This document shows, one piece after another, positions 3 through 12,824 of a stretch of DNA of 64,000 nt (within the stretch, counting starts at the first letter, position 1; each line of letters starts with the position of its first letter). This DNA comes from a virus, in IMG/VR virus record IMGVR_UViG_3300028898_000325, positions 2,631 through 66,630 of that record; one strand, 5' to 3'. A model generated the notes under the pieces. That model was given only the letters and a program-made list of their open reading frames with translations. It had not been told where the DNA came from and did no database searches. Position numbers and translations under genes: made by a program.

Positions 3-548
3 AAAGAGGCGATACAGGCCAGGATAAACGAAATAAACGAAAAGATCACCCCGGATGTATCCGATTGGATGCGGGAAGAATTGCTTTCCCGGAAATCAAA
101 GCTTTCAGGCGGCTTTGCCCTGCTTTACATTGGTGGGAAGACTGCCGGTGAGATAAAGGAATTAAAAGACCGCTGCGAAGATGCTGTTTTGGCTGTTCGC
201 TCTGCCATTGAGGCAGGATATTTGCCCGGATGTGGTAAAGCGTATCTTATGGCCTCAAAAAAATTGCCCGGAAAATCTATTTTGATCGAAGCGCTGCACT
301 CAATTACTCGGCAGGTTTGCTTTAACGGAGACATCAACGAAATACAAACCGGGGAAATCATTTTAAAAATGCTTTCATCTGGCGTTACTTTTGGCTACAA
401 CGCCCGAACCGATACAATGGAGGATTTATTTAAAGCCGGTGTTATTGATAGCGCAAAAGTTGTCATTTCAGCCCTTCAGAATGCCGTTTCCGCTGCCCTG
501 GCCTTTGTAAACACGGAATTTATCATTGCTCAGGAAAAGAAAGATTAA
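3..548 (+). CDS. groEL: Chaperonin GroEL-like protein, C-terminal part (5' truncated by window edge)
   Basis: The frame is open from nt 3: ARINEI..SDWMREELLSRKSKLSGGFALLYIGG...KDRCEDAVLAVRSAIEAGYLPGCG...GYNARTD..DLFKAGVIDSAKVVISALQNAVSAA. This follows the GroEL apical/equatorial motifs (KERxxDAxxAxxAAxxxGxxPGGG; GIIDPxKVxxxALxNAxS). Confidence 0.92.
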   Translation, partial: KEAIQARINEINEKITPDVSDWMREELLSRKSKLSGGFALLYIGGKTAGEIKELKDRCEDAVLAVRSAIEAGYLPGCGKAYLMASKKLPGKSILIEALHSITRQVCFNGDINEIQTGEIILKMLSSGVTFGYNARTDTMEDLFKAGVIDSAKVVISALQNAVSAALAFVNTEFIIAQEKKD

Positions 549-796
549 TCACCTTCCAGTATCCATGTATAGGATTTTTTGTACCGATCCTTCCATTTGT
601 GCAGGAAGTCAATGGTAACGCCGTATGTGGCAAGTTCCAGCGCTTTCAGGTGGGAAAGTTTAACATCCATGGATTCAGCAAATTCTTTTTGAGTAAGCCC
701 GGCTTGATGCCGGGTTTCTCTTAGTCTTTTGGCAATGCCTGGATCACCAACCTTTGGCTTTACAGGCTTTTTCTTTTTTGTTTTGCTGACGGACAT
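545..796 (-). CDS. XRE-family helix-turn-helix regulator
   Basis: IAKRLRETRHQAGLTQKEFAESMDVKLSHLKALE matches the HTH_3 pattern. Confidence 0.85.
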   Translation of the reverse strand: MSVSKTKKKKPVKPKVGDPGIAKRLRETRHQAGLTQKEFAESMDVKLSHLKALELATYGVTIDFLHKWKDRYKKSYTWILEGD

Positions 797-839
797 TTTT
801 TTAGTTTGTTAAGGAGCGGACGAAAATACAAAAAAAGGA

Positions 840-889
840 TTGAGTTGCGGCAATTGGGCGGAACTGCGGCAATACAAGAGTTAGCAGCA
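840..889 (+). other. Putative attI-like entry site of cassette array 1
   Basis: It ends in GA|GTTAGCAGCA (GTT at 880) and has no left hairpin arm. TTGAGTTGCGGCAATTGGG (840-858) is 17/19 identical to the reverse complement of 12531-12549. TGCGGCAAT occurs twice in direct orientation. Confidence 0.5.
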
Positions 890-1150
890 ATGCCTGACCA
901 ACACACAATCCTGCTTTGCTATATGCCGCCACATGGTTCGCTGCCCAGCATAGTCCTCCCACAATACATAGTCTTTAATGCCACCAGCATTATCAACGTC
1001 AAATTCTTCACCGATTAAGTTTCTATACCAACCCTGCTCGTATGAGCATTGGGTAATTCTGACCCGACAAGGAGCAGGCGGCAGGGCACTGCTGCTAACA
1101 TCGGTTTGCTGCAAGTCAGGCTGATTGTTTTCTAATGAACTGTTTTCCAT
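881..1150 (-). CDS. Hypothetical phage protein in cassette A (antisense to attC)
   Basis: 89-aa ORF. The stop TAA lies inside the core at 880-889 and the ATG lies inside the attC at 1090-1231. Confidence 0.65.
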   Translation of the reverse strand: MENSSLENNQPDLQQTDVSSSALPPAPCRVRITQCSYEQGWYRNLIGEEFDVDNAGGIKDYVLWEDYAGQRTMWRHIAKQDCVLVRHCC

Positions 1151-1231
1151 TTTGTAAACTTTAGTTTGTTATTAAATACTGTTGTGCTGCCAAGTCCTGC
1201 CCTGACAGCAAGCCGTCAACCGTTGTAGGCA
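1090..1231 (+). repeat. attC-like recombination site (array 1, #1)
   Basis: TGCTGCTAAC - GGTTTGCTGCAAGTCAGG ... CCTGACAGCAAGCC - GTTGTAGGCA. The arms are imperfect inverted repeats between AAC and GTT cores, with the longer spacer on the GTT side. Confidence 0.8.
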
Positions 1232-1278
1232 ATTTGGCAACCGTCTCCATAATCTAAACTTCACCTAAAAACTTTCGT

Positions 1279-2097
1279 ATGACACCAAAAACTCTTTTAA
1301 TTATGTTAATGGCACTTGTTTGCCAAAACGCATTTGCTCAAAATAAAAAATCAAATAAAGAAGCTCCTAACAAATTCGAGAACATTGATACCACTTCTTC
1401 ATCAAATCAAAAAGGAACTGAGGACATCAGTGAATATGGAGGAACACCAATAGTGACAAGAACAAGTAAATTTATTGAAATTTCTGAGGAAAAATCAGGT
1501 GAGGAAATTGCAAGTTTATATGATGAATGTGTGGTGATTATCAGTGGGTCATCCTCCACATTTTCCAGTCAAGGTAGCGGAGTAATAATATCTTCTGATG
1601 GTTATTTAATAACAAATTATCACGTGATAGCTGGAATGAACAATATAACCGCTTCCAATGCTATTATTAAAAATACTCCAGTCACAATTATATTTAAAGA
1701 CCAAACTAATGACATAGCACTTTGCAAACTTCCTAAATCAAATTATAAGACTGCTCAATTTTGGTTTGGTGATGCGCTTTTTAAGGGGTCGACAATATAT
1801 GCTATTGGAAGTCCATTAGGAACTCCAAATATGATTACAAAAGGAATTGTGTCCGGTAAGTATATCGAAGATGGTAAAGCATATATAGTTCATGACGCAG
1901 CCATGGGCAGCGGATCTAGCGGAGGAGCATTAATAAATGCAAAAGGTCTTCTTGTAGGCATCAATACAAAAGTGAAATTGCAACAAAAAGAAACTGTTGT
2001 TCAAAACTTCAATTATGCAATACCAATTCACGTAATTGAAAATATTCTTAAAGAAGCAGGTTATGAAAATGTTCTTAAAAATACTTCATCCAAATAA
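1279..2097 (+). CDS. Secreted trypsin-like serine protease (S1/HtrA-like catalytic domain, no PDZ), cassette B
   Basis: Signal peptide ending AFA|Q; GSGVIISSDGYLITNYHVI (His), NDIAL (Asp), GSSGGALIN (Ser). Confidence 0.9.
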   Translation: MTPKTLLIMLMALVCQNAFAQNKKSNKEAPNKFENIDTTSSSNQKGTEDISEYGGTPIVTRTSKFIEISEEKSGEEIASLYDECVVIISGSSSTFSSQGSGVIISSDGYLITNYHVIAGMNNITASNAIIKNTPVTIIFKDQTNDIALCKLPKSNYKTAQFWFGDALFKGSTIYAIGSPLGTPNMITKGIVSGKYIEDGKAYIVHDAAMGSGSSGGALINAKGLLVGINTKVKLQQKETVVQNFNYAIPIHVIENILKEAGYENVLKNTSSK

Positions 2098-2100
2098 AAC

Positions 2101-2303
2101 TGCCTACAACAAATGTATTACAGCAAGCGGGGCAGAAGTACAAATCATCAGCTGGAAACCGCTACTGTACTGCATTCACGCATGCAGTACAGCTATGGAA
2201 CATCGGTTGTAAACATCAAATTTTAAATCAATAATCGGCTGCAGTCCCACGCATGCGGAACATGAAAAATCCCGCCTGCTTTAATACTCGGTCGTTGGGC
2301 GCA
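2101..2303 (+). repeat. attC-like recombination site (array 1, #2; long)
   Basis: TGCCTACAAC - GTATTACAGCAAGCGGG ... CCCGCCTGCTTTAATAC - GTTGGGCGCA. It begins 3 nt after the protease stop codon. Confidence 0.8.
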
Positions 2304-2306
2304 ATA

Positions 2307-2747
2307 CTACGCTACCATTAATTCAGGATTTTCATATTTATTACCAATAACTTCTGTTTGATTCCACCATTCTATTGAGTATAATGAGCATTGGTCTTCT
2401 GACACTGTTGCATGGAAAGCGTAATCCTTCCAAACGACAACATTCCACCCTCCTTGCCAATTTTTTACAATATCTCCTTCCCATATTTCTTTACCATTTT
2501 TATCCTTCAACCCTGTATTTTGAAGGAAAATAGATTCATTCGGGAAAATGTCATATTTGTTTTCGTCTGGAACATACTGTGTTAACTCATTGTGTAACTC
2601 AAATGATTTCCCCATCTTTTTTAAAGACGGAATCCACGCCTTAAAATTTAATTTTCTTTTCATAATAAACGTACATGCGCCCAACATTTGCTTTGTGGCA
2701 ATAGTGGCAGAAGTGCCAGCTTCAACTTTTGATTTTCTATTTGACAT
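2307..2747 (-). CDS. YopX-like phage protein, cassette C (alternative start 2663)
   Basis: KLNFKAW...LQNTGLKDKNGKEIWEGDIVK...EVIGNKYENPEL is the YopX family signature. Confidence 0.88.
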   Translation of the reverse strand: MSNRKSKVEAGTSATIATKQMLGACTFIMKRKLNFKAWIPSLKKMGKSFELHNELTQYVPDENKYDIFPNESIFLQNTGLKDKNGKEIWEGDIVKNWQGGWNVVVWKDYAFHATVSEDQCSLYSIEWWNQTEVIGNKYENPELMVA

Positions 2748-2814
2748 AAGAATATATTTTGAACATTTGATTAATAAATTCCACTACTGCACAAAGCAGT
2801 TCAACGTTGGGCGT
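2676..2814 (+). repeat. attC-like recombination site (array 1, #3)
   Basis: TGCGCCCAAC - TGCTTTGTGGCAATAGTGG ... CCACTACTGCACAAAGCA - GTTGGGCGT. The left arm carries one extra base. Confidence 0.85.
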
Positions 2815-2856
2815 AAGCACTACCAGCATTTATTGCCAGTAGTGCTGCCCGACAAA

Positions 2857-3111
2857 TTAAGAACGTGGAGGCCAGTGCCAGGTTCTTGGCTCTTTAGTTT
2901 CGCTGTAAGGAACAGAAGTTGCCCATACATCTTTTTCACCATCAGCCAATACTTTTAAATTCACCTCATCGTTTTCGTATGAAGTGTTTTCCCACGTTCT
3001 TACAATAACAGCAGGTGACGTTTCGCCATTATTGTTTTCTTTTCTTGCATCTTCTGGCCACACGTAGATTACTACTCTACCAGAAGACGGCTTTACTTCG
3101 GACTTTGCCAT
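2857..3111 (-). CDS. Conserved-looking phage hypothetical protein, cassette D
   Basis: PSSGRVVIYV...PAVIVRTW...VNLKVLADG..W.TSV...WHWPPR resembles a small phage protein family recalled from memory; function unknown. Confidence 0.75.
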   Translation of the reverse strand: MAKSEVKPSSGRVVIYVWPEDARKENNNGETSPAVIVRTWENTSYENDEVNLKVLADGEKDVWATSVPYSETKEPRTWHWPPRS

Positions 3112-3172
3112 TTTATTTACGGTTTGACCAGAGCCGTTATGGTTTAATTTTCTATTAAATTACCCGTGCCTA

Positions 3173-3309
3173 ACGCCCAACAAACGGTTTGGCGGCAGTC
3201 GGGGGACAAGTGCAAATCCTCATCTTCGCTTATCTATCGGCTTCGGAAATATGGTCAGCAGCAGTTTTTCAAATACCGCCCGACCGCCAAGCCGAAACCG
3301 TTAGCGGCC
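3173..3309 (+). repeat. attC-like recombination site (array 1, #4)
   Basis: ACGCCCAAC (GCCCAAC fits RYYYAAC) - GGTTTGGCGGCAGTCGGG ... CCCGACCGCCAAGCC - GTTAGCGGCC. Confidence 0.85.
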
Positions 3310-3311
3310 AT

Positions 3312-3641
3312 TTAATATTTAAAGCGATCATACGCCTGTATATTTTTTTTCATTTTGGTTTCTACAAAAAACTTTGCCATGCTTTCCATCATTGCTTTCA
3401 GTTCTTCATTTATGTTCCCGTGGAAAATTACTTTGTTATCAAGCGGGTACCAGGTTGTTACTGCAATGTTGTATCCGGGCACTCTTTCTTCTGCCAGTGG
3501 CTTTATTTTTTCCATCTGCTGGTTAAGCAGCTGGGTATCTTTGTACATCCATACCCTGCATATCCATAAAGGAAAAACAGTGTGCAGGATGTAGGTCCCG
3601 TCTTCTATGTTTACGAAAACAAATTTTTCTACTTTAGGCAT
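3312..3641 (-). CDS. Hypothetical protein
   Basis: Likely start MPKVEKFVF (ORF is open to 3683); the stop is adjacent to the attC #4 core. Confidence 0.65.
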   Translation of the reverse strand: MPKVEKFVFVNIEDGTYILHTVFPLWICRVWMYKDTQLLNQQMEKIKPLAEERVPGYNIAVTTWYPLDNKVIFHGNINEELKAMMESMAKFFVETKMKKNIQAYDRFKY

Positions 3642-3867
3642 CTTGCTTTTTGATTTTAAACTGTATTTCCACACCGTAACCATTAACTATCTCTTCCAGT
3701 ATATCCAGGCTAATATTTCGGATTCCCCTTTCTATGTACGAAAGGTTTGAAGCAGCCTGACCGGTTTTTGCTGCAGCATCTTCTAAAGTTAAATTTTGCT
3801 TTTTCCGGAATGCTTTTAGTGCGGATCCAACTTGTGATTTTAAATCTTCTGTGGTTTTCTCTTTCAT
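3634..3867 (-). CDS. XRE-family helix-turn-helix regulator
   Basis: LKAFRKKQNLTLEDAAAKTGQAASNLSYIERGIRNISLDILEEI matches HTH_3. Confidence 0.88.
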   Translation of the reverse strand: MKEKTTEDLKSQVGSALKAFRKKQNLTLEDAAAKTGQAASNLSYIERGIRNISLDILEEIVNGYGVEIQFKIKKQDA

Positions 3868-3966
3868 TTTTGGGGAGTGTTGATGCACCGGAGCAGCCAT
3901 ATAGGATAACGCCCCGGTGGGTTGTGTTTAGTTAAGGGCAAAATTGCGGGTTTATACTTGCTTTTT

Positions 3967-4197
3967 TCACCCTACAAACATTTTTTTAAGTGCATATATC
4001 TGGGTCCATAATGTAGGGTGTTTTTGCCCATCAAAAAGGCTGTGACCTTCCAACGGGGTTTTCTGCAAATGAAATTCAACAGAGTTTAACGCCATGCTGG
4101 CGGTAAACAATAACTCCCCTATCTTTTCCCGTTTATCTTTGGGAAGTAGCTTTATATTTTGCAATAGTGCTGTGTCGGTGGTTTGTTGTGCTTTCAT
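3967..4197 (-). CDS. Hypothetical protein
   Basis: 76-aa ORF in a run of minus-strand genes. Confidence 0.55.
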   Translation of the reverse strand: MKAQQTTDTALLQNIKLLPKDKREKIGELLFTASMALNSVEFHLQKTPLEGHSLFDGQKHPTLWTQIYALKKMFVG

Positions 4198-4241
4198 GCT
4201 GCACCGCTATTTATTTAACCGGTTAGCGTTCCGGGGGTTGG

Positions 4242-4505
4242 TTAATATTTCATTGGTGATGTTAAAAGACTGTCTAACTGATCGGCGTCTAAATCCGGGT
4301 ATTCAATGTGCAAAATATCTATTTCGTAGCCGTCCGTTCCCGGTTCGCATTGGGTGTATGCCGCAACCGCTTCCGGTGCATCTGTTACCCCTTTGTACGG
4401 GCACAATTTCCAGCGGCAAGCGTGACCAGGATTTTTACACCCGGCGCAACACATGAGCAGGGCGGCAATTATTATGAGTAGTAAGTGGATGTTTTCTTTT
4501 TTCAT
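4242..4505 (-). CDS. Putative lipoprotein
   Basis: MKKENIHLLLIIIAALLMCCAGC: basic N-terminus, hydrophobic core and lipobox-like Cys. Confidence 0.55.
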   Translation of the reverse strand: MKKENIHLLLIIIAALLMCCAGCKNPGHACRWKLCPYKGVTDAPEAVAAYTQCEPGTDGYEIDILHIEYPDLDADQLDSLLTSPMKY

Positions 4506-4573
4506 TACATTAGGTTTATGTGTTAATTAAAAAGGGGTACGGATTAAAAACAAAGCGGGGTAATAGTTATTTT

Positions 4574-4753
4574 TTAATAATAAAAAAAACGAGCGGTTAA
4601 TTTATCGGCTGGCTCTAACTGGTGCTTACTCCTGTAGAACTCTTTCGCTTGTTTGCATGTTTTACTTTGATCTGTGCTACAGACATAACGTCCATTTATA
4701 AACAAGTCAATTTTATAGCATCCAGTAGAACTGTTATATTTTTTATTTTTCAT
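4574..4753 (-). CDS. Small hypothetical protein (59 aa, not in ORF track)
   Basis: Manual translation: MKNKKYNSSTGCYKIDLFINGRYVCSTDQSKTCKQAKEFYRSKHQLEPADKLTARFFYY. Confidence 0.55.
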   Translation of the reverse strand: MKNKKYNSSTGCYKIDLFINGRYVCSTDQSKTCKQAKEFYRSKHQLEPADKLTARFFYY

Positions 4754-4839
4754 TGTCTTAGCTTTTAGAAGGTTATTTTTTAGGCCGTATAATTTGCAGC
4801 CAGTAAGCGCCGGTGAATTTCATGGTGGGTAGGGTGGGG

Positions 4840-6900
4840 TTATGGTTTGTCTAATATTACAGTTACAGTACTTACTCCGGTCGGACGAAATACACTGGCG
4901 AAGCTTCCTGCTGGGTTCTCTTCAATTGTTCCGTAGCGCTCAACCATTTGTAAAAATTCCGGGCTTCTGTGTTTGTTGTTAGCCATTATTGCTACCAATC
5001 TGCCGCCGCCGTTCAATAATTGGAATGCGTGTTTTACATGTTCAACATCCTGCAGGTTTTCAAACGGCGGGTTCATAATTATTTTGTCGAACTTTAAAGA
5101 TTCAGTATCGTTAAGCATGTTTAAAAAATCGCCGTTTTGCACTAAATGCCCCTTTGCTTTTAGCGCTTCAAATAAAGAATGGTTAATTTCAACGCAAAGC
5201 AGCTCATTGCCGGGGTGATCTGCTTTTATTTGATCTGCGATGTGCCCAAGTCCGGCGGATGGTTCCAAAATGGTGTCGCCGGGTTGAATGTTTGCCAATT
5301 CAACTATCTGCGCTGCAAGTGTTTCGGGGGTAGGGAAAAAACCTGGTATTTTTGATCCTATAAATTTTCTTTCGAGCTCTTTTATTTGCAGGCTTCTTTT
5401 TTGCTCTTCGCTTAATCCTGTGCCTTTTTCAAGGTTAAGCAGCTCACGCAATGCAGCCCTTAATTCTTCAATTGTATCTATACCGATGCGCTGAAGTCTT
5501 TTCATGTGCATTAACTGTTCTTTATATCGGTCAATTTGCCAACTATCCACAACGCTACATCTCTGGCAAAATAGAGTTTCGTAGTCCTCTACCCTTTGCT
5601 GGCTGTTTATGAGTATATACTCGTAAGGTGCCAATCTTTTAAGCATGCGGGAAGCGGCTAGTTTTTTGCCGGGAACATCTTTCATTCTCTCAATCTCTCC
5701 TTTTCGGTTTGCATATAAAATAGGGTATGGTAATTCTGCAAAGTTCACCGTCTCTAAACTTGTTTGGTATTTGCTGCGGTCTAAATTCAAAGCGTTTATG
5801 TGCCGGTTTTTCGCCATACTCAAAATACTTTTAAGCTCTTCAAGGTCTCTGCTATTGCTTATTTTGTATAGATATTTTATTTCTTCAGTCTCCATCGCTT
5901 CGCCAATTTTTACAAGTGTTTTGCCAAAGCTTATTTGTGCCGCCGCCTTTCTTTCGGCGTTTTCAGCCATTGCGGCCCGGCGGTGGGTGTTGGTTTCTCT
6001 GTCCCTGTTAAGTTCCCGCTCTCCATCTTTAATGAGGTTTATCCCTTTTTCTTTTAATGCTTCAGCTCTTGTTTGTTGTTTTTGCTCGGCGGATTGTTGC
6101 TTCAGCTCGCTTGCGTCTACATTGCCGTTCTTTACTTGTGCAAATAGTTCTGCCGCTTCTTTGTTTTCAAACGTGAATCCGGGAATAGCGCCGTTGCCTT
6201 TAAAGCTGGAATAGTAGCCGCCTAATTTTTTGGCTCTATTGTTTAACTCTTCATAAACAGAGCGTTGAACCCTTGTATCGAGCACGACAACCCAAAGAGG
6301 TATTTGTTTTTTTGCATGGAAACTTTCTTTTATGTGCATTTCAGCACTTACGTTCTCAACAGATGCAACCTGTGCCTTTTGTTTTTCTTCTCTTTCTTTT
6401 ATGGCTCTTCTTAAATCTGCTGTTAATTCATCGTATTTTATCCGCTGTTCACTGGTTAGGGCCGCCTCCCCTTTACTAGCTATGAAGCTGCGAAACTCTT
6501 CAAGCGTTTCGGGGTTGTTCAGTGCCTTTTCTCTTTCCTCTCTTTTGGCTTGCAATTTTGCTTTATATGCGGCGTATGTCTCTGCGGTGTAAGAGTTTGT
6601 TATTCTCTTTAAAGCCTGCTGCCATGTTTCATCAAATGGGGAATAAGAAAAACTATCCCCCATCACGGCGCATTGCGCTATTGTAGAAAATACACTATCA
6701 ACCGCCTGTTTTTTATTGTCGGCTCTGTACGTGTATTTTTTAAGGGTTGCAACTGTTTCTTTCGCAATCAATCCTTTCAAAAAATCTTCTTCAGTCAAAA
6801 CAAACTCCTTAAATGTTTGCCAGTCTTCAAAAGAATGTCCGTTTGAATACAACGTCCTCGCTGTATTAAGTAGCTCCGTAAAATTGTTTGGCTTATTCAT
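4840..6900 (-). CDS. Large protein with C-terminal class I SAM-dependent (probable N6-adenine DNA) methyltransferase
   Basis: FFPTP..LAAQIV, ILEPSAGLG (motif I), IIMNPPF (motif IV); long helical N-terminal region. Confidence 0.85.
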   Translation of the reverse strand: MNKPNNFTELLNTARTLYSNGHSFEDWQTFKEFVLTEEDFLKGLIAKETVATLKKYTYRADNKKQAVDSVFSTIAQCAVMGDSFSYSPFDETWQQALKRITNSYTAETYAAYKAKLQAKREEREKALNNPETLEEFRSFIASKGEAALTSEQRIKYDELTADLRRAIKEREEKQKAQVASVENVSAEMHIKESFHAKKQIPLWVVVLDTRVQRSVYEELNNRAKKLGGYYSSFKGNGAIPGFTFENKEAAELFAQVKNGNVDASELKQQSAEQKQQTRAEALKEKGINLIKDGERELNRDRETNTHRRAAMAENAERKAAAQISFGKTLVKIGEAMETEEIKYLYKISNSRDLEELKSILSMAKNRHINALNLDRSKYQTSLETVNFAELPYPILYANRKGEIERMKDVPGKKLAASRMLKRLAPYEYILINSQQRVEDYETLFCQRCSVVDSWQIDRYKEQLMHMKRLQRIGIDTIEELRAALRELLNLEKGTGLSEEQKRSLQIKELERKFIGSKIPGFFPTPETLAAQIVELANIQPGDTILEPSAGLGHIADQIKADHPGNELLCVEINHSLFEALKAKGHLVQNGDFLNMLNDTESLKFDKIIMNPPFENLQDVEHVKHAFQLLNGGGRLVAIMANNKHRSPEFLQMVERYGTIEENPAGSFASVFRPTGVSTVTVILDKP

Positions 6901-6953
6901 ATTTATTCGCCTTTCGCCTGTTGGCCCGGCGGCTGTGCCGGTGGTTTATTTGA

Positions 6954-7214
6954 TTAACAATTAAAATTTAAAGAATACTGAGAAAAGCTATTTTTCATCA
7001 CATCCGCAATGGCATATATACCTGAAGCCTTAGCCGGTGGCAATTGTCCGGTAAGTTGTCGTGCTATCTCTTGCCTCAGCATGATATTGTTCGCACCGCT
7101 TAAATACTGGGCGCAATGAAAATCAAAGCATTGGGGGCTATTCATGTAACTATTTTTTAGTGCATTAATTACATCCGTTGCCCGTGTGGTTAGTGTTACT
7201 TTGTTGTTTTGCAT
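6954..7214 (-). CDS. Hypothetical protein
   Basis: 86-aa ORF that shares a leader repeat with the methyltransferase gene. Confidence 0.6.
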   Translation of the reverse strand: MQNNKVTLTTRATDVINALKNSYMNSPQCFDFHCAQYLSGANNIMLRQEIARQLTGQLPPAKASGIYAIADVMKNSFSQYSLNFNC

Positions 7215-7265
7215 AATATATTCGCCCTTTCGCTATTGCCCGGCAGGCTGAACCGGTTGTTATGG

Positions 7266-7421
7266 TTAATTGAATGGGTTTTTGCTTTTAGAATTAAAAA
7301 CCATTGCCCACGCTTTTGCGTACATTTCAGCAGCCTTGCCAACTGGCACTTTTACATGGGGAAAGCCGGCTTTGCAAGCCATTTTATAAACTTTCTTATC
7401 AAATTTGTTTGCGGTGGTCAT
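7266..7421 (-). CDS. Small hypothetical protein (51 aa, not in ORF track)
   Basis: Manual translation MTTANKFDKKVYKMACKAGFPHVKVPVGKAAEMYAKAWAMVFNSKSKNPFN; it fills a gap in the minus-strand run. Confidence 0.45.
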   Translation of the reverse strand: MTTANKFDKKVYKMACKAGFPHVKVPVGKAAEMYAKAWAMVFNSKSKNPFN

Positions 7422-7441
7422 ACTGCAGTGTTTTGTTGTCA

Positions 7442-7558
7442 TCAATCAATTAGCGTATAAAAAGGAAACAACCGGTAAAACTTCTCAGTAGCTTTTGCCT
7501 CGTTAACCTCAGTTATTGTAACGGTCCCGGCGGTAGTATTGAAAATGAATGTTTGCAT
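7442..7558 (-). CDS. Small hypothetical protein (38 aa, not in ORF track)
   Basis: Manual translation MQTFIFNTTAGTVTITEVNEAKATEKFYRLFPFYTLID; tightly packed between its neighbours. Confidence 0.4.
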   Translation of the reverse strand: MQTFIFNTTAGTVTITEVNEAKATEKFYRLFPFYTLID

Positions 7559-7568
7559 GACCTATATA

Positions 7569-7772
7569 TTAATTTACCTTAATACTGTTCTCTTCGTTTA
7601 AAAATGAAACTACCTCTGAAATTTCATCCATATATCTGCCCTTCTCGCCACCTTCCATTGAAGTACGAACAAGTTGCAACCCGTTGTCCTGTTCTATACT
7701 GTCAATTATCCAAACTATACCGGATGTAGTTTGGAACTTAGAACCTTGAAGTATGTCGTTAACTGTTATCAT
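7569..7772 (-). CDS. Hypothetical protein (first gene after a TAACTTTG promoter)
   Basis: ATG 7772 is preferred over GTG 7793 because the -7 box overlaps the latter. Confidence 0.55.
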   Translation of the reverse strand: MITVNDILQGSKFQTTSGIVWIIDSIEQDNGLQLVRTSMEGGEKGRYMDEISEVVSFLNEENSIKVN

Positions 7773-7795
7773 TGTTTCATCGTTTGTTGACACAA

Positions 7796-7812
7796 AGTTA
7801 TGCTATATAACT
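7796..7812. promoter_or_regulatory. 17-bp palindromic operator-like motif overlapping a minus-strand TAACTTTG -7 box
   Basis: AGTTATGCTATATAACT; TAACTTTG on the minus strand at 7793-7800. Confidence 0.55.
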
Positions 7813-7964
7813 ATATAAACAAGCAAAAAGTATCAAATTTGATAAATTTAGTAGCTGTTCAATAAAATGCCTATATTTTATAACATTTGATAAAATTTAA
7901 ACGTAAAATTGAATAAAATTGAAAATATTTTAGTCTCGCAAATTCCCGGCAAAACACTTTTGAA

Positions 7965-7981
7965 GGTTATAAAGCATAACC
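7965..7981. promoter_or_regulatory. 17-bp palindromic operator-like motif
   Basis: GGTTATAAAGCATAACC; its reverse complement matches the 18673 copy at 15/17. Confidence 0.45.
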
Positions 7982-8126
7982 ATGCAAATAAACATGAGAG
8001 AGAACACCGGCGCCGGCACCAGCCGCAACACCACCAAACAGTGAAAAAAGTAAAAATGAAGCCTCCGAGAATTGAATAGAGAAAAACAAATTGCGCTATT
8101 GTACAGGATAAGCCAGGCTTACAGCC

Positions 8127-8510
8127 TTATTCAGCAGCATTCGGCAGGCCCGGCAGACCACGGGCCGCCAGCTTGTGCAATATCTTTTCGTAACGAGAGA
8201 GTAACAGACGACCGGACGTGGTGATGACCAGCGGTGAACGCTGACTACCACGAGCCAAATAGCCACGTTTGAGCAAACCCTGAACAAGATCATTTACAAA
8301 ACCAAAGGAACGAGTATTCCTACAAGCCTTTAATATCTTCCCTACTTTATCGTAAGTCACAGCAACCCCATGAGCATTGCAATAAACAACATACACCAAC
8401 GCAATTAAATCAACCCTCCTAACCTCCCAACCTTCCATAGATGATAACACAGAAAGGGCAGAGCCTTCATTCAACGTTGAACAAACCAACGGAAAATCAG
8501 CTAACACCAT
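8127..8510 (-). CDS. Hypothetical protein, possible winged-helix DNA-binding protein
   Basis: YDKVGKIL...VNDLVQGLLKRGYLARG...LVITTSGRLLL resembles MarR-like wHTH; the start codon is uncertain (ORF open to 8639). Confidence 0.4.
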   Translation of the reverse strand: MVLADFPLVCSTLNEGSALSVLSSMEGWEVRRVDLIALVYVVYCNAHGVAVTYDKVGKILKACRNTRSFGFVNDLVQGLLKRGYLARGSQRSPLVITTSGRLLLSRYEKILHKLAARGLPGLPNAAE

Positions 8511-9032
8511 TACAGACGAACGCAATTGTAATTTATCGCCCAAAATTAAACAGAGTTTGTACTCAATTGAGTGATTTATGAAGGGGTTAATTGCACATTT
8601 GCAGACACATTGGCGCATTAGATCCTGACATAACGGCACAATGTGTTATAACATTATGAAAATCAGTATGAATGCAAGGCGCAAAAGCAACGCCCACAAT
8701 ATTAATTATGTTAAATAGGCCATTTTTCACCCCAAATATACACCTTATCTTTCCATTTGAACGCTGCGAGAATTGAATATTTACCCTCAACCCCTCCCCT
8801 ACCCTACCGGATGTGCTGCAAATTGGTTTATTTTCCGTGATAACCATGCGAATTGCTTTGAAATTTCCAGATTCCCCTTTTCCCGCCGACCATAAAAAAG
8901 ACCCCACCCGGTCGCAAAATTCCCGTTTCCCCAGGCAAAACGACCCCGGCTTTATAAGGTATTATCCCTCCATTCCATCCACACGTCCTATTTTAACAGG
9001 CTGTGAATGGATGTGGCGGTTAATTTTTGGGT

Positions 9033-9320
9033 TTAGTATTTGAGTGTTAATACTTTTACCACATTCATTTGGGCGTTGAGGATTTCGCCTATGGTGTGGT
9101 GGTAAAGTATTGTGGCATGCTGTGATAGTGCTTTTTGTTGGGTTACTTCTCTTTCCTGTATTTCATCATGCAGGAGGTCTGCAAGTTCTGCGCAAAGTTT
9201 TTTTGCCTTGGTTACTTTGTCATCGTTTGATGGGTTGAAGGTTAATCCTACGAGTTTTTCCCCGAAAGTCATTGGTCTTTGTGGGGCTACATCTACTGGG
9301 CTTGATTGTGTTGTACTCAT
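9033..9320 (-). CDS. Small helical phage protein, possibly Acb2/Tad1-hairpin-like
   Basis: TFGEKLVGLTFNPSND...AKKLCAELADL...IGEILNAQMNVVKVLT; family resemblance recalled from memory, not searched. Confidence 0.45.
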   Translation of the reverse strand: MSTTQSSPVDVAPQRPMTFGEKLVGLTFNPSNDDKVTKAKKLCAELADLLHDEIQEREVTQQKALSQHATILYHHTIGEILNAQMNVVKVLTLKY

Positions 9321-9548
9321 AATATTGTCGGTTTTACCGGAGCCGATACGGTTTATTTTGATTGATCGCTTGTTTTGTTTACTTCTTATCGCTTTCTTTG
9401 TTATCGTTGGGATTTGGGGAGGTGTGTGGCTTGTTTGAGTTCCTCTTCTGTGTTCCCGTAGAGCGATTTAAAGACTACGGTTTTCTGTTGTTTTTCCATT
9501 GTGTGTTTGTTTATGGTTGCGAAGGATCACCCTTTGAGTATTCTTTGA

Positions 9549-9761
9549 TTATTTGGTTGGGCATGAGGGTAGTTTTATTTTTTTAAGCAGCATTGACATT
9601 AGGTAATCATATATACTGAAAACTTGTTTAAACTTGTCTACGCCTGAAAATATCCAGTATACCCCAGCCAGTACAAGCAGTACAGAATAGAGAGAGGTTA
9701 TTAGAAACGCCGCTGGCATCCAGGGTATTATTTTAATAAAAAAAACGAGTCTGTTTGTCAT
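9549..9761 (-). CDS. Small membrane protein
   Basis: Long hydrophobic stretch; ATGA overlap with the upstream gene. Confidence 0.5.
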   Translation of the reverse strand: MTNRLVFFIKIIPWMPAAFLITSLYSVLLVLAGVYWIFSGVDKFKQVFSIYDYLMSMLLKKIKLPSCPTK

Positions 9762-10033
9762 AGTTTTGTTTCGTTGTTTGTGGAGGGGTTTTGTTTTGAC
9801 TGAAGGAACATTTGATATGCCCCATCGGATGTGACATACTTCATATCGAGACCTATCCATGTACCATTGGAAGCGGACTGAAAATCTAACTTGTGATTGC
9901 TCATGAAGTTTGCAAACTCAATCGCCTCCCGCCGGCACAGTTCCTCTATCTGCTTTGTAAAGTCCGCTTCGTCTTCTCTTGTGAGGTATTGGTATTTGTC
10001 AATCTTTTGAACTAATTCGTAGGCTTTACTCAT
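9758..10033 (-). CDS. Hypothetical protein
   Basis: 91 aa; shares EAIEF and Y..FLQ.KQ motifs with its neighbour. Confidence 0.65.
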   Translation of the reverse strand: MSKAYELVQKIDKYQYLTREDEADFTKQIEELCRREAIEFANFMSNHKLDFQSASNGTWIGLDMKYVTSDGAYQMFLQSKQNPSTNNETKL

Positions 10034-10296
10034 TGCTGCTGTTTTTGCTGCAAGAAAATTTGATAATACTGTTCCATTGATTCATAGGTGCCGTGACTAT
10101 CTACAAATACACCAAGCGAAACCTCCAGCATTCTACCTGTAGCAAATTCAAGGAACTCAATCGCCTCCTGCTTGGCGTACTCGTCCATAGCCTTTTCTAT
10201 TTCTTCGATTTGGCTATTAGGGTCGCCACCCCAACTGTAGCATTCCGTACTATCCCATCCGCTGTCTTCAAGTATTTCTTCTTTTGTTTTTGTCAT
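10030..10296 (-). CDS. Hypothetical protein
   Basis: 88 aa; MTKTKEEIL...KAMDEYAKQEAIEF. Confidence 0.65.
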   Translation of the reverse strand: MTKTKEEILEDSGWDSTECYSWGGDPNSQIEEIEKAMDEYAKQEAIEFLEFATGRMLEVSLGVFVDSHGTYESMEQYYQIFLQQKQQQ

Positions 10297-10406
10297 GCCT
10301 CAGAGTTTTTTCTTAACAAAAACCAAAGATAGGAAAAAATATTTGGTTATGTGGCATAACTTTATGTTATTTGTGGTTATATTGTATGACTTTAAAAAAC
10401 GAAAGA

Positions 10407-10655
10407 ATGAAAACATTTATTTCTGTTGCGCTTGTGCTCGCCATGTGCTTGTACGTTTCCCGGATGAACATTCAGGCAAAGCCATTCAAAGTGTCATTCG
10501 GAGATCTCCCAGCGGGGCTCGGTGTATTGTTTATTGTCCTGGCGGTTATTTGCTTTCAGCTATCAGGATATAAACGAGGGGTGAAAGATGGATATAGTGA
10601 AGCCGTTGACGATGTTATTGAACTTTCAAAAGAGAAAAAGCAGCCTGCAGAATAG
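10407..10655 (+). CDS. Membrane protein
   Basis: Two hydrophobic segments followed by GYKRGVKDGY. Confidence 0.6.
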   Translation: MKTFISVALVLAMCLYVSRMNIQAKPFKVSFGDLPAGLGVLFIVLAVICFQLSGYKRGVKDGYSEAVDDVIELSKEKKQPAE

Positions 10656-10696
10656 CGTCTCCCTCCCCTGCCTTCATGGGGTGAAAGTATGGGGGA

Positions 10697-10827
10697 GGTA
10701 ACGGCTCCGGGTGTTTGCGAAGGGATGGAATAGTAGCACTTCCGCCCAACAACAACAAATGCCCGGCTTTGCAAATGGTTGAGAACTTATTCGTCAGCCA
10801 GCCTTTTGCAAATACCAATGTTCTATG
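10697..10827 (-). repeat. attC-like recombination site (array 2, distal)
   Basis: On the + strand: GGTAAC - GGTGTTTGCGAAGGGATGG ... CCAGCCTTTTGCAAATACC - GTTCTATG; the arms are 15/19 complementary. Spacer asymmetry indicates minus orientation. Confidence 0.75.
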
Positions 10828-10877
10828 TCTGTATTTTGCGAAGCTGCGGAGCTTTACTAACAATTTAAAAAGAGGTT

Positions 10878-11156
10878 ATGACAACAGAAAATGCTTTAGA
10901 CTTAGTAAAAATGTATGCTCAACCTGCTAAATCTTCTTTTGGCGGCGAACTGGATTATAATATAATTCCTTCAAAGCAATTCTATCATTTAGCAAATGAA
11001 ATTGCTGAAAAGGTAAACATGTGGCAAGATCAGGCCATTACGCTGCATAAGATTATTTATAAAATGATGAATGAAGAAATACCTACTTATGATATGAAGG
11101 AAGGGGAGGTAATTAAAAGTATTGTTGCTGAAATTGTAAATAACACAAAAAAATAA
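10878..11156 (+). CDS. Hypothetical protein (cassette E, gene 1)
   Basis: 92-aa ORF between paired cores at 10820 and 11571. Confidence 0.6.
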   Translation: MTTENALDLVKMYAQPAKSSFGGELDYNIIPSKQFYHLANEIAEKVNMWQDQAITLHKIIYKMMNEEIPTYDMKEGEVIKSIVAEIVNNTKK

Positions 11157-11161
11157 ATTTT

Positions 11162-11575
11162 ATGGTAGATAAGAAAAAACTTGCCGAAATATTTAACCTT
11201 CCAGTGAGTGAAGTTGAAACAATTTTTGAAGCTGCATTGGTTTATCAATGTGATGCACAAAATGAAGGGTATAGAGATTGGTGTAAAATGTATGATGGCA
11301 TTCATAGGGAAATGCACGGGGAAACAGCAATAAGAAACTGGCTTGCATTTAGAAGATGGCAAAAATCAAGGGCACAGCCTTCTATTAAAGAGTTTATGAA
11401 TCTCGCAAATGAGTTGAGTAATACATCTACGGATAAACAATTTAGATATGTTCTTACTCATTCACAACTTATAAAGCTGTATGAATTTGCGCAAGCTGGT
11501 GCTATTAATGCTGAAATTCAAACGTCCAGCCCATTAAAGAACGAAAAGTGTGGCAAGGGGCAAAATATAGCATAG
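11162..11575 (+). CDS. Hypothetical protein (cassette E, gene 2)
   Basis: 137 aa; the stop TAG lies inside the core CATAGAAC. Confidence 0.65.
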   Translation: MVDKKKLAEIFNLPVSEVETIFEAALVYQCDAQNEGYRDWCKMYDGIHREMHGETAIRNWLAFRRWQKSRAQPSIKEFMNLANELSNTSTDKQFRYVLTHSQLIKLYEFAQAGAINAEIQTSSPLKNEKCGKGQNIA

Positions 11576-11683
11576 AACGTGCCGGGTGCTTACGAAGGCG
11601 GGATATTGACTTGAGGCAGTTTGGCTTTGCGATTGTTCCGGCTTTGTTCCTTCGCCCCGCTTTTGTAAGCACCATGTTATGTA
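11571..11683 (-). repeat. attC-like recombination site (array 2, middle)
   Basis: CATAGAAC - GGTGCTTACGAAGGCGGG ... CCCGCTTTTGTAAGCACC - GTTATGTA; the arms are 16/18 complementary. Confidence 0.85.
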
Positions 11684-11785
11684 TCAGTAGGGCAATGACT
11701 GTTCCTGCTGCTGAATAGAATTACTGAAGAAAAAATGCGGGGACGGCTGAAGTCACAGCCACTCCGAAACACTAAAAACAAAAGC

Positions 11786-12169
11786 ATGAAAATTTATACT
11801 GCAAGCAAAACGAAACACGCTCACAAATGGATTGAGCTAAGAAATAACGGCGTGAATGTTATTTCAACTTGGATTGATGAAGCAGGGCAAGGGCAAACAA
11901 AAGACATGGCTGATTTGTGCCGCCGTTGCATTCAGGAAAGTATTGACTGTGATGCAATGATTGTGTATGCAGAAGAAGGCGACTATTTGAAGGGTGCATT
12001 TATTGAAATGGGCATTGCTCTTAGCGTTCCCTCTAAGCCGATTGTGTTGGTTGGCGAAGTGCTGCCTTTCGGTTCAGCATTCACGTATGCGCCACAAGTT
12101 TTCAGGGCTAAAACAATAGAGGCGGCTTTGGAACTGTTAGAAACTTCCAAAACGCCGGTCACGGCGTAG
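11786..12169 (+). CDS. Nucleoside 2-deoxyribosyltransferase-like (NDT-fold) protein, cassette F
   Basis: MKIYTAS...ISTWID...CIQESIDCDAMIVY...KGAFIEMGIAL..KPIVLVG follows the NDT pattern (xIYLAG ... D ... GxxxExGxA). Confidence 0.7.
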   Translation: MKIYTASKTKHAHKWIELRNNGVNVISTWIDEAGQGQTKDMADLCRRCIQESIDCDAMIVYAEEGDYLKGAFIEMGIALSVPSKPIVLVGEVLPFGSAFTYAPQVFRAKTIEAALELLETSKTPVTA

Positions 12170-12226
12170 GGAAGCGTGGGGCATTTTTTCTAAACTGAAG
12201 TTCGGTTATGTTCAAAAGCCCTATTG

Positions 12227-12365
12227 TACATAACGTCGAGAGGCTTTGTGCCTGTTGCCGAATTTGAAATTATTCACTCTAAAATTTATACAAATGTCCA
12301 AAAGTAAAAAGAAAGTTGAGCCGACTTCCCAAAGCGGCAATAGCACAAAACCTGTGTTATATGCC
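12227..12365 (-). repeat. attC-like recombination site (array 2, proximal)
   Basis: TACATAAC - GGCTTTGTGCCTGTTGCCG ... CGGCAATAGCACAAAACC - GTTATATGCC; one extra base in one arm. Confidence 0.85.
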
Positions 12366-12527
12366 GTTGGCGATTTGGTGAAAATCATTGCTAATGTTGA
12401 TTATGTAGGTTCAGTTGGTCGGGTGATTGATTTAAACGAACCTGGCCCTCATCCGATAAAGGTTCAATTTGAGGACACTTGGTGTTGTTATGCAGCCGAT
12501 GAGATATGTCACGCCAATGGCATATAA
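12294..12527 (+). CDS. Hypothetical protein, possible SH3/KOW-like fold (cassette G)
   Basis: AVGDLVKII...GSVGRVID...PIKVQFED. The ATG lies inside the attC and the stop TAA lies inside the core GGCATATAAC. Confidence 0.6.
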   Translation: MSKSKKKVEPTSQSGNSTKPVLYAVGDLVKIIANVDYVGSVGRVIDLNEPGPHPIKVQFEDTWCCYAADEICHANGI

Positions 12528-12549
12528 CTCCCCAATTGTCACAACTCAA
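12519..12549 (-). other. Putative attI-like entry site of cassette array 2
   Basis: Minus strand TTGAGTTGTGACAATTGGGGA|GTTATATGCC; no hairpin arm; matches 840-858 at 17/19. Confidence 0.5.
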
Positions 12550-12554
12550 CACAA

Positions 12555-12824
12555 ATGATTGAACCCCAATATTATCACCAAATTAAAAAAGGCTCTACGG
12601 TAACTCTGTGGAATGGCAGTTACCGTGTGCAAGAGGATAGAGGGCATTTGTATGTTGTGATGAAAGTAAATGGGCAACGTAAAAAGAAAACAATCACACC
12701 AGAATTATTCCCGGAACCAGGCAGTTTGCAGGATTTTATTTTTCATCAATGGTTTCAGGATTATACCGAGCAGGAATTTTATTCATTCGCTTCAGCCGAA
12801 TTAAGCTGGCTGGGGATAAATTAA
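12555..12824 (+). CDS. Hypothetical protein
   Basis: 89-aa ORF in a + strand run. Confidence 0.6.
   Translation: MIEPQYYHQIKKGSTVTLWNGSYRVQEDRGHLYVVMKVNGQRKKKTITPELFPEPGSLQDFIFHQWFQDYTEQEFYSFASAELSWLGIN

Follow-up and report, generated by a model that had tools for sequence, protein, structure and literature searches.

How do gene cassettes enter a phage genome that carries no integron integrase, and at what site? The question is raised by a Bacteroidota prophage, the 71,442-bp IMG/VR provirus record IMGVR_UViG_3300028898_000325, of which we analyzed a 64,000-nucleotide (nt) stretch, positions 2631 to 66630 of the record, called the window below. Two cassette arrays lie in it, array 1 reading rightwards and array 2 leftwards, and an earlier note, made from the sequence alone, had proposed that both begin at a shared site resembling the integron entry site attI, with no integrase gene beside it. 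We think it likely that the arrays are headed by an attI-type site of a Bacteroidota integron-like system, whose 360-amino-acid (aa) Xer/IntI-like recombinase lacks the insert typical of IntI and would reach the phage from the host or another element. To our knowledge, attI sequences are known for only a few integron classes and are normally not predictable; here the site could be read by comparing bacterial and phage junctions.

Both arrays begin at a crossover site without a hairpin

The features that make up the two array heads and their displaced counterparts are as follows (window positions; an arrow in sequences marks the crossover point; PWM, position weight matrix).

840..858, plus strand: 19-mer of array 1, distal (second) attI-like unit; exact left terminus of a 2,472-nt insert; the units lie in tandem in the alignment
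859..880, plus strand: proximal attI-like unit of array 1; ends in GAG, crossover after G880; aligns with bacterial TTGCGTATATTTGAGAG; PWM rank 3
12528..12549, minus strand: array 2's attI-like unit, made up of the 19-mer and GAG; crossover after G12528; counterpart of array 1's proximal unit; PWM rank 8
3301..3311, plus strand: right-half remainder of array 1, TTAGCGGCCAT T, without a complementary partner; resembles TTAGCGGCAAG; abuts the stop codon of a 109-aa backbone gene
10737..10749, minus strand: right-half remainder of array 2, TTGGGCGGAAGTG, after the last attC; outer boundary undefined

The 19-mers stand exactly where the earlier note had placed them, at 840-858 (plus strand) and 12531-12549 (minus strand), and are identical at 17 of 19 positions. 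Allowing up to 3 mismatches, the window holds two matches against 0.07 expected from shuffled sequence (none of 100 shuffles gave two), and the whole record holds the same two only. Each 19-mer contains the palindrome CAATTG. Both regions end in GAG↓TT, at G880↓T881 on the plus strand and G12528↓T12527 on the minus strand; this motif follows the 19-mer directly in array 2 and 21 nt further on in array 1. The extra 21-nt unit of array 1 (859-879) is real: the record has just two copies of TGCGGCAAT, offset by 19 nt.

The first cassettes identify the point of exchange. Sequence after each G↓TT is complementary to the inverse core of the same cassette (880-894 with 1085-1099 in array 1, 93%; 12512-12528 with 12356-12372 in array 2, 94%), and 880/881 and 12528/12527 are therefore true crossover junctions. 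As had been claimed, the first GTT of each array has no hairpin partner: neither a hairpin scan nor our model of the attC family found one ending at 880 or 12528. That model was built from 17 attCs of the family and uses sequence only, because RNAalifold predicted no structure on their MAFFT alignment; over the record it finds the 7 known sites and nothing else. The first cassettes start at 881 and 12527 with every attC on the far side, which places both sites at the array head, the position of an attI. Tandem repeat units are visible at the head of array 1, where the recombinase-binding boxes are only putative.

The stretch TTGGGCGGAACTGC at 853-866, in the array 1 site, is identical at 13 of 14 positions to the reverse complement of 10736-10749 at the far end of array 2, a likeness that may reflect common ancestry of the two platforms. 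AACTCAA and GCAATAC were tried as arm-type sites of the prophage integrase and dropped, their counts in the record being unremarkable.

The phage junctions match a recombinase-adjacent site in bacteria

A pattern derived from two attCs retrieved two contigs. One, G001, is viral, 42 kb long and unrelated to the phage; the other, of 3 kb, comes from a Sphingobacterium metagenome-assembled genome (MAG) and is wholly such an array. The attCs of this family have sequence as well as shape in common. The attC model matches in 76 of 151 genomes of the MAG's bacterial family, with chromosomal arrays of at least 20 sites (e.g., G088:C1:1624594-1654690), and partial integron-integrase matches lie 1 to 5 kb from attC matches in the same genomes. 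Four genomes of Sphingobacteriaceae-type bacteria (loci L171 to L174) carry a gene for a 360-aa Xer/IntI-like recombinase divergent from the array, three of them at these coordinates:

L171:1250-2332, minus strand: array-associated recombinase gene
L173:1173-2255, minus strand: array-associated recombinase gene
L174:9104-10186, plus strand: array-associated recombinase gene

In all four loci an identical TTGCGTATATTTGAGAG↓TTA stands about 165 nt from the recombinase start, followed by four different cassette starts and attCs of the family; a second, weaker unit lies 17 nt upstream. When the proposed likeness to attI was examined in these bacteria, which carry the same attC family, the phage units aligned in register with the recombinase-adjacent site of all four genomes, which makes them homologous to the attI of integrons sharing these attCs. 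An ungapped alignment of four bacterial and four phage junctions leaves G..AT....GAG↓TTA invariant. A PWM trained on the bacterial, G001, and L031 (a further phage array, described below) junctions only, with the window junctions excluded, ranked the array 1 junction third and the array 2 junction eighth among about 128,000 window positions, and by the upstream 14 nt alone these two rank first and third among the 25 GAGTTA sites of the window. The alignment also amends the idea of a shared 19-mer: it is attI-like in both arrays, but the register differs, the 19-mer of array 2 corresponding without gaps to the 21-nt unit of array 1, whose own 19-mer is a second, upstream unit, as at the bacterial site. 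At the far end of array 1, 9 of the 11 positions of 3301-3311 agree with TTAGCGGCAAG, the right half of the bacterial site.

The 19-mer could instead be the right-hand (R') end of an attC whose left half was lost, and its core GTTGYGRCAATTGGG does resemble cassette-start boxes such as GTTGTAGGCAATTTGG at 1222. All array heads read GAG↓TT, however, whereas 16 of 17 attCs of the family have (A/C)CG↓TT, which argues against a degraded attC. There is also no L' stem, the attC model finds nothing at the 19-mer, and the bacterial site with which the units are in register is itself no attC. We consider this origin highly improbable.

The bacterial enzyme scores 198 to 202 bits on the IntI model TIGR02249, under the cut-off of 265. 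Compared with a true IntI of G071, a genome of the same bacterial family, it lacks the insert of about 40 residues near patch III and has 87 additional N-terminal residues with a weak DUF5710 match; because the insert is absent, it is not a canonical IntI. Presence of the recombinase goes with presence of the attCs (30/39 against 46/112 genomes; p = 1.6e-4), and the two true IntI genes of G071 have no attC of the family nearby.

Source of the recombinase

The genes found beside the phage arrays, where intI would usually lie, are listed here with the adjoining intergenic region.

545..796, minus strand: helix-turn-helix (HTH)/XRE gene, divergent from array 1; Pfam HTH_19/HTH_3; backbone; 58% identical to its homologue in the related phage L021; not a recombinase
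797..839, no strand: backbone intergenic region with the XRE promoter; equals the whole 41-43-nt intergenic region of the related phages L021, L026, and L030
12555..12824, plus strand: hypothetical 89-aa gene, divergent from array 2; no Pfam family; without recombinase features

Pfam thus agrees with the earlier description of both neighbors, and an adjacent integrase gene, present in the bacterial counterparts, is absent from the phage arrays. The statement that no integrase lies beside the arrays holds inside the window; in the full record it does not, as a 386-aa tyrosine recombinase is encoded at record positions 1-1161 (L018:1-1161), just outside the window and 2.3 kb upstream of array 1, in the gene order recombinase, groES, groEL, XRE gene, array 1. 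The 3' end of a tRNA gene lies 80 nt upstream of this recombinase in an identical 7.7-kb contig (L020:1-35), which marks it as the integrase of the prophage, at what looks like its left attachment site. It is the sole PF00589 match of the record, and its score with the integron-integrase model is 50 bits, far under the cut-off of 265. The search for an IntI-type recombinase, extended to the rest of the record, found no homologue of the bacterial enzyme, the prophage integrase scoring 16.6 bits. G001 and L031 encode one generic integrase each; these two are not related, and neither is a relative of the bacterial enzyme. The closest IMG/VR relatives of the bacterial array recombinase are just 28 to 29% identical.

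With no cognate recombinase in the record, supply in trans is the simplest reading, and any enzyme acting on the sites would have to come from the host or another element in the cell. The suggestion of a host IntI survives insofar as an array-type recombinase stands beside the matching bacterial site, but that enzyme, lacking the IntI insert, is of another kind. On present sequence comparisons, the phage probably relies on a host enzyme for gene capture. A profile of the 109-aa phage protein found no related prophage in the 151 genomes of the comparator family, which leaves a link of the phage to that host family putative.

Four runs of one bioreactor study give signs of cassette mobility. Contigs covering the attC regions 2111-2293 and 3182-3299 add up to a depth 4 to 20 times that of the phage backbone. 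Many part from the phage sequence at GTT/AAC core boundaries and join other sequences there, for example GTTGCCTGCAATGC after 3298, and a shorter variant in the bioreactor metagenomes skips 3205-3276. Logan contigs of the four runs showed no other junction at 880/881 or 12528/12527 and no segment inversion, a result that weighs neither way because contigs drop rare variants.

Array 1 is an insertion relative to related phages

Relatives were found via the phage GroEL (67% identity) and the profile of the 109-aa protein. In three of them (L021, L026, and L030) the XRE gene is followed by the 41-43-nt intergenic region and then by the stop codon of the 109-aa gene, and the proteins flanking 840-3311 are 54 to 58% identical between the phage and these relatives. 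Window positions 840-3311 are therefore a 2,472-nt insertion, which starts exactly at the first base of the 19-mer and finishes with TTAGCGGCCATT, immediately ahead of the stop codon. Judged by this comparison, the array 1 site falls outside the conserved backbone of the phage; the stretch that separates the two arrays is backbone and keeps synteny with the relatives. IMG/VR single-protein searches with the phage GroEL and the open reading frame (ORF) 12555-12824 returned no relatives, and neither array region matched a GenBank phage by blastn.

Such an insertion would also fit if each array had been copied in once, together with an attI stub, from a bacterial or phage integron-like locus, by illegitimate or homologous recombination or by recombinase action at a secondary, attG-like site, and the 19-mer were an unused fossil in the phage. 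The insertion relative to at least three relatives includes the 19-mer as its exact terminus; of the bacterial attI region, roughly 165 nt long, the phage has just 22 to 40 nt; and cassette insertion by integron integrases at GWT sites in genomes is known (bioRxiv 10.1101/2022.09.11.507474). Against a passive relic, the genome has two independent sites with different cassettes and diverged units, and the same junction type occurs in two other phages with unrelated backbones. Phage cassettes are antisense where bacterial ones are sense, so the phage arrays are no plain copies of the bacterial arrays examined, and the intact core complementarities of 10 to 17 nt argue for recent precise exchange. 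We regard a passive relic as unlikely.

The inverted arrangement of the 19-mers, 11.7 kb apart, each just upstream of a divergent gene and each with its CAATTG, would also suit operators or promoter parts of the XRE and hypothetical genes, or the ends of a mobile or invertible segment. Yet the relatives lack the 19-mer while having the XRE gene with its promoter, the inter-array DNA is syntenic backbone, the record has no further copies of the 19-mer, and homology to the bacterial attI explains its sequence. Such roles have very little probability in our estimate; inversion of the segment by site-by-site recombination is possible as a side effect and is no alternative to the attI reading.

The other phage arrays support a comparison of heads. 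G001 has seven cassettes and a head reading ...TTTCGCAAATATGCGAG↓TTAGCGGTCATTGCC, with no attC upstream, and shares with the phage one attC only, 81.5% identical over 146 nt to that of array 1 cassette 4. A relative, L031, carries another array, with the head ...TGTCGCATATTTACGAG↓TTAGCCGCCATCC. The junction pattern TCGCAWATWTNCGAGTTAGC retrieved from IMG/VR only two contigs that were already known. A 42-codon ORF by the G001 head (L142 ~4030-4155, plus strand) resembles the NUMOD4-type N terminus of a homing endonuclease. Some cassettes of related phages carry DNA methyltransferase genes, with N6_N4_Mtase in L031 (10115-10870) and a further case in L026 (1-516).

Cassettes and attC sites

The cassettes of the two arrays are as follows.

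881..1222, plus strand: array 1 cassette 1; antisense ORF 881-1150 starting in the attC loop, its stop TAA being the junction TTA; attC ~1095-1226
1223..2294, plus strand: array 1 cassette 2; trypsin-like protease, the only sense ORF (1279-2097); attC 2105-2299
2295..2806, plus strand: array 1 cassette 3; YopX-family gene, antisense, true start ATG 2663; attC 2680-2811
2807..3300, plus strand: array 1 cassette 4; antisense ORF 2857-3111; attC 3176-3304
10750..12527, minus strand: three cassettes of array 2 (12527-12234, 12233-11578, 11577-10750); ORFs on the plus strand, antisense to the attC top strand

Each cassette starts with TT and 10 to 17 nt complementary to an AAC-ending sequence at its own far end. 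The attCs run from that AAC to the next GTT over 100 to 190 nt, in the order AACA, a spacer of 2 to 5 nt, stem, loop, stem, a spacer of 6 to 7 nt, and (A/C)CG↓TT, and their polarity is uniform throughout the arrays. This chimeric pattern is the one expected for integron cassettes swapped at G↓TT. With four and three attCs of the family and no IntI, the arrays are clusters of attC sites lacking an integron integrase (CALINs), defined by at least two attCs and no such integrase nearby.

In four phage arrays (881-3300, 10750-12527, L142 877-3977, and L031 9520-12327) the ORFs are antisense to the attC top strand, except in the protease cassette, and run along with the flanking phage operon; the same orientation is seen in the MAG contig (L065), and the ORFs of the bacterial arrays L171, L173, and L174 are sense. 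The TTA that follows GAG↓ is, on the other strand, the TAA stop of the first-cassette ORF in three phage arrays (881-883, 12525-12527, and L142 3975-3977), and those three ORFs start inside an attC loop and encode proteins that are not detectably related.

Some cores recur. The inverse core ACTGCCTACAAC of the protease cassette (2097-2110) is found by unrelated ORFs in another phage (L142 ~1785-1798) and in the MAG contig (L065 107-118), and the core GGCATATAAC of the cassette at 12356-12528 recurs in L026 (441-450) near a methylase-like ORF.

A proposed mechanism for cassette capture

In the model that we favor, the site would be double-stranded and hairpin-less. It would consist of units of some 18 nt, TTGYG..CAAT..., two in tandem in array 1 and a single one in array 2, with GAG closing the last unit. 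A circular cassette would recombine through its folded attC with the site at GAG↓TT; the newest cassette would come to lie beside the site, and the site's former right half (TTAGCGGCCAT.., TTGGGCGGAAG..) would be displaced to the far end of the array. The enzyme would be supplied by the host or another element in the same cell. The attI-like reading of the array heads is supported by the alignments. It is plausible that the enzyme acts in trans, but its supply by that route, its binding to the units and present-day activity are inferred from sequence.

Several observations weigh against this model. Nearly all phage cassettes are antisense, unlike those of the bacterial arrays, and a plain flow of cassettes from host to phage leaves their orientation unexplained. 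The likeness to the bacterial site is moderate, at 10 or 11 of 17 positions, 3 of them the anchor. The thought that the exact 19-mer might mark array starts elsewhere failed: searched as the exact 19-mer or as a 17-mer with two degenerate positions, it gave 13 matches in IMG/VR and 23 in JGI metagenome contigs, in unrelated and mostly coding contexts and in about the number expected by chance, and it marks no other array in either collection. The relatives lack the array 1 site, which may have come along with the cassettes and never served in the phage. The record is 71% complete by CheckV, so that the missing part may hold a phage-borne recombinase, and the true host genome lies outside the comparison.

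A fuller version of the model, which we offer only tentatively and hold to be somewhat improbable as a whole, would make the recombinase-less docking sites live capture platforms of temperate Bacteroidota phages. Through them an insert-less Xer-like enzyme of the host would take in cassettes from a phage-adapted, reverse-oriented pool in which attC loops provide promoter and start codon, and the two inverted sites might also allow inversion of the 11.7-kb early region.

Relation to known systems

In classical integrons, attI1 comprises L and R boxes and the direct repeats DR1 and DR2. The phage sites are like a classical attI in standing at the array head, in the G↓TT crossover, in the lack of a hairpin, and in directly repeated units, visible in the sequence, that measure about 18 nt and precede the crossover box, as well as in the old right half at the far array end and, in the bacterial counterparts, in a divergent and adjacent recombinase gene. 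They differ in that the phage has no adjacent recombinase gene, the bacterial enzyme has no IntI insert, and the crossover context is GAG↓TTA. Their likeness to attI1-3 is one of organization, and no sequence relation is expected.

CALINs of phages have been described, including one in a Bacteroidota (Polaribacter) phage, with GTTRRRY motifs repeated at array boundaries and DNA methyltransferase genes among the cassettes (Qi et al. 2023, PMC9892861). The arrays studied here are likewise integrase-less attC clusters of phages, Bacteroidota included, but their heads are matched to a defined bacterial site, one prophage has two such heads, and the cassettes are almost all antisense, with start codons in attC loops. 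In the rAID-1 arrays of gut Bacteroidales, a XerD-family recombinase heads arrays of genes whose intergenic sequences are repetitive and resemble those of integrons (Ross et al. 2019, bioRxiv 10.1101/471110); the criterion given there is a XerD-like recombinase more than 44% identical to BF9343_RS08045 and 5' of a co-directional array. These too are Bacteroidota arrays headed by a recombinase, which can be set beside the 360-aa enzyme by description only; they differ in that the recombinase is co-directional with the array, and the text consulted defines no attI and describes no phage copies. At attG sites, cassettes are inserted outside a complete integron at G↓(A/T)T, recombined as double-stranded DNA (Loot et al., bioRxiv 10.1101/2022.09.11.507474). 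Insertion at a double-stranded G↓(A/T)T site outside a complete integron is common to both cases; attG sequences, however, broadly differ from attI and attC, whereas the two phage sites are alike and also similar to the bacterial attI. Publications already cover CALINs of phages and rAID-1 arrays; what is added here is the match of phage array heads to a bacterial insertion site.

The attC family, present in half of a bacterial family's genomes (76 of 151), stands against surveys that report almost no complete integrons in the Bacteroidota phylum; the IntegronFinder 2.0 survey lists one complete integron in Bacteroidetes. The phage carries what appears to be a landing pad without the enzyme. 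If such pads are active, phages and their Bacteroidota hosts would share one pool of cassettes through a recombinase that lacks the domain held essential for integron function, which would bear on the origins of integrons and on how phages acquire accessory genes.

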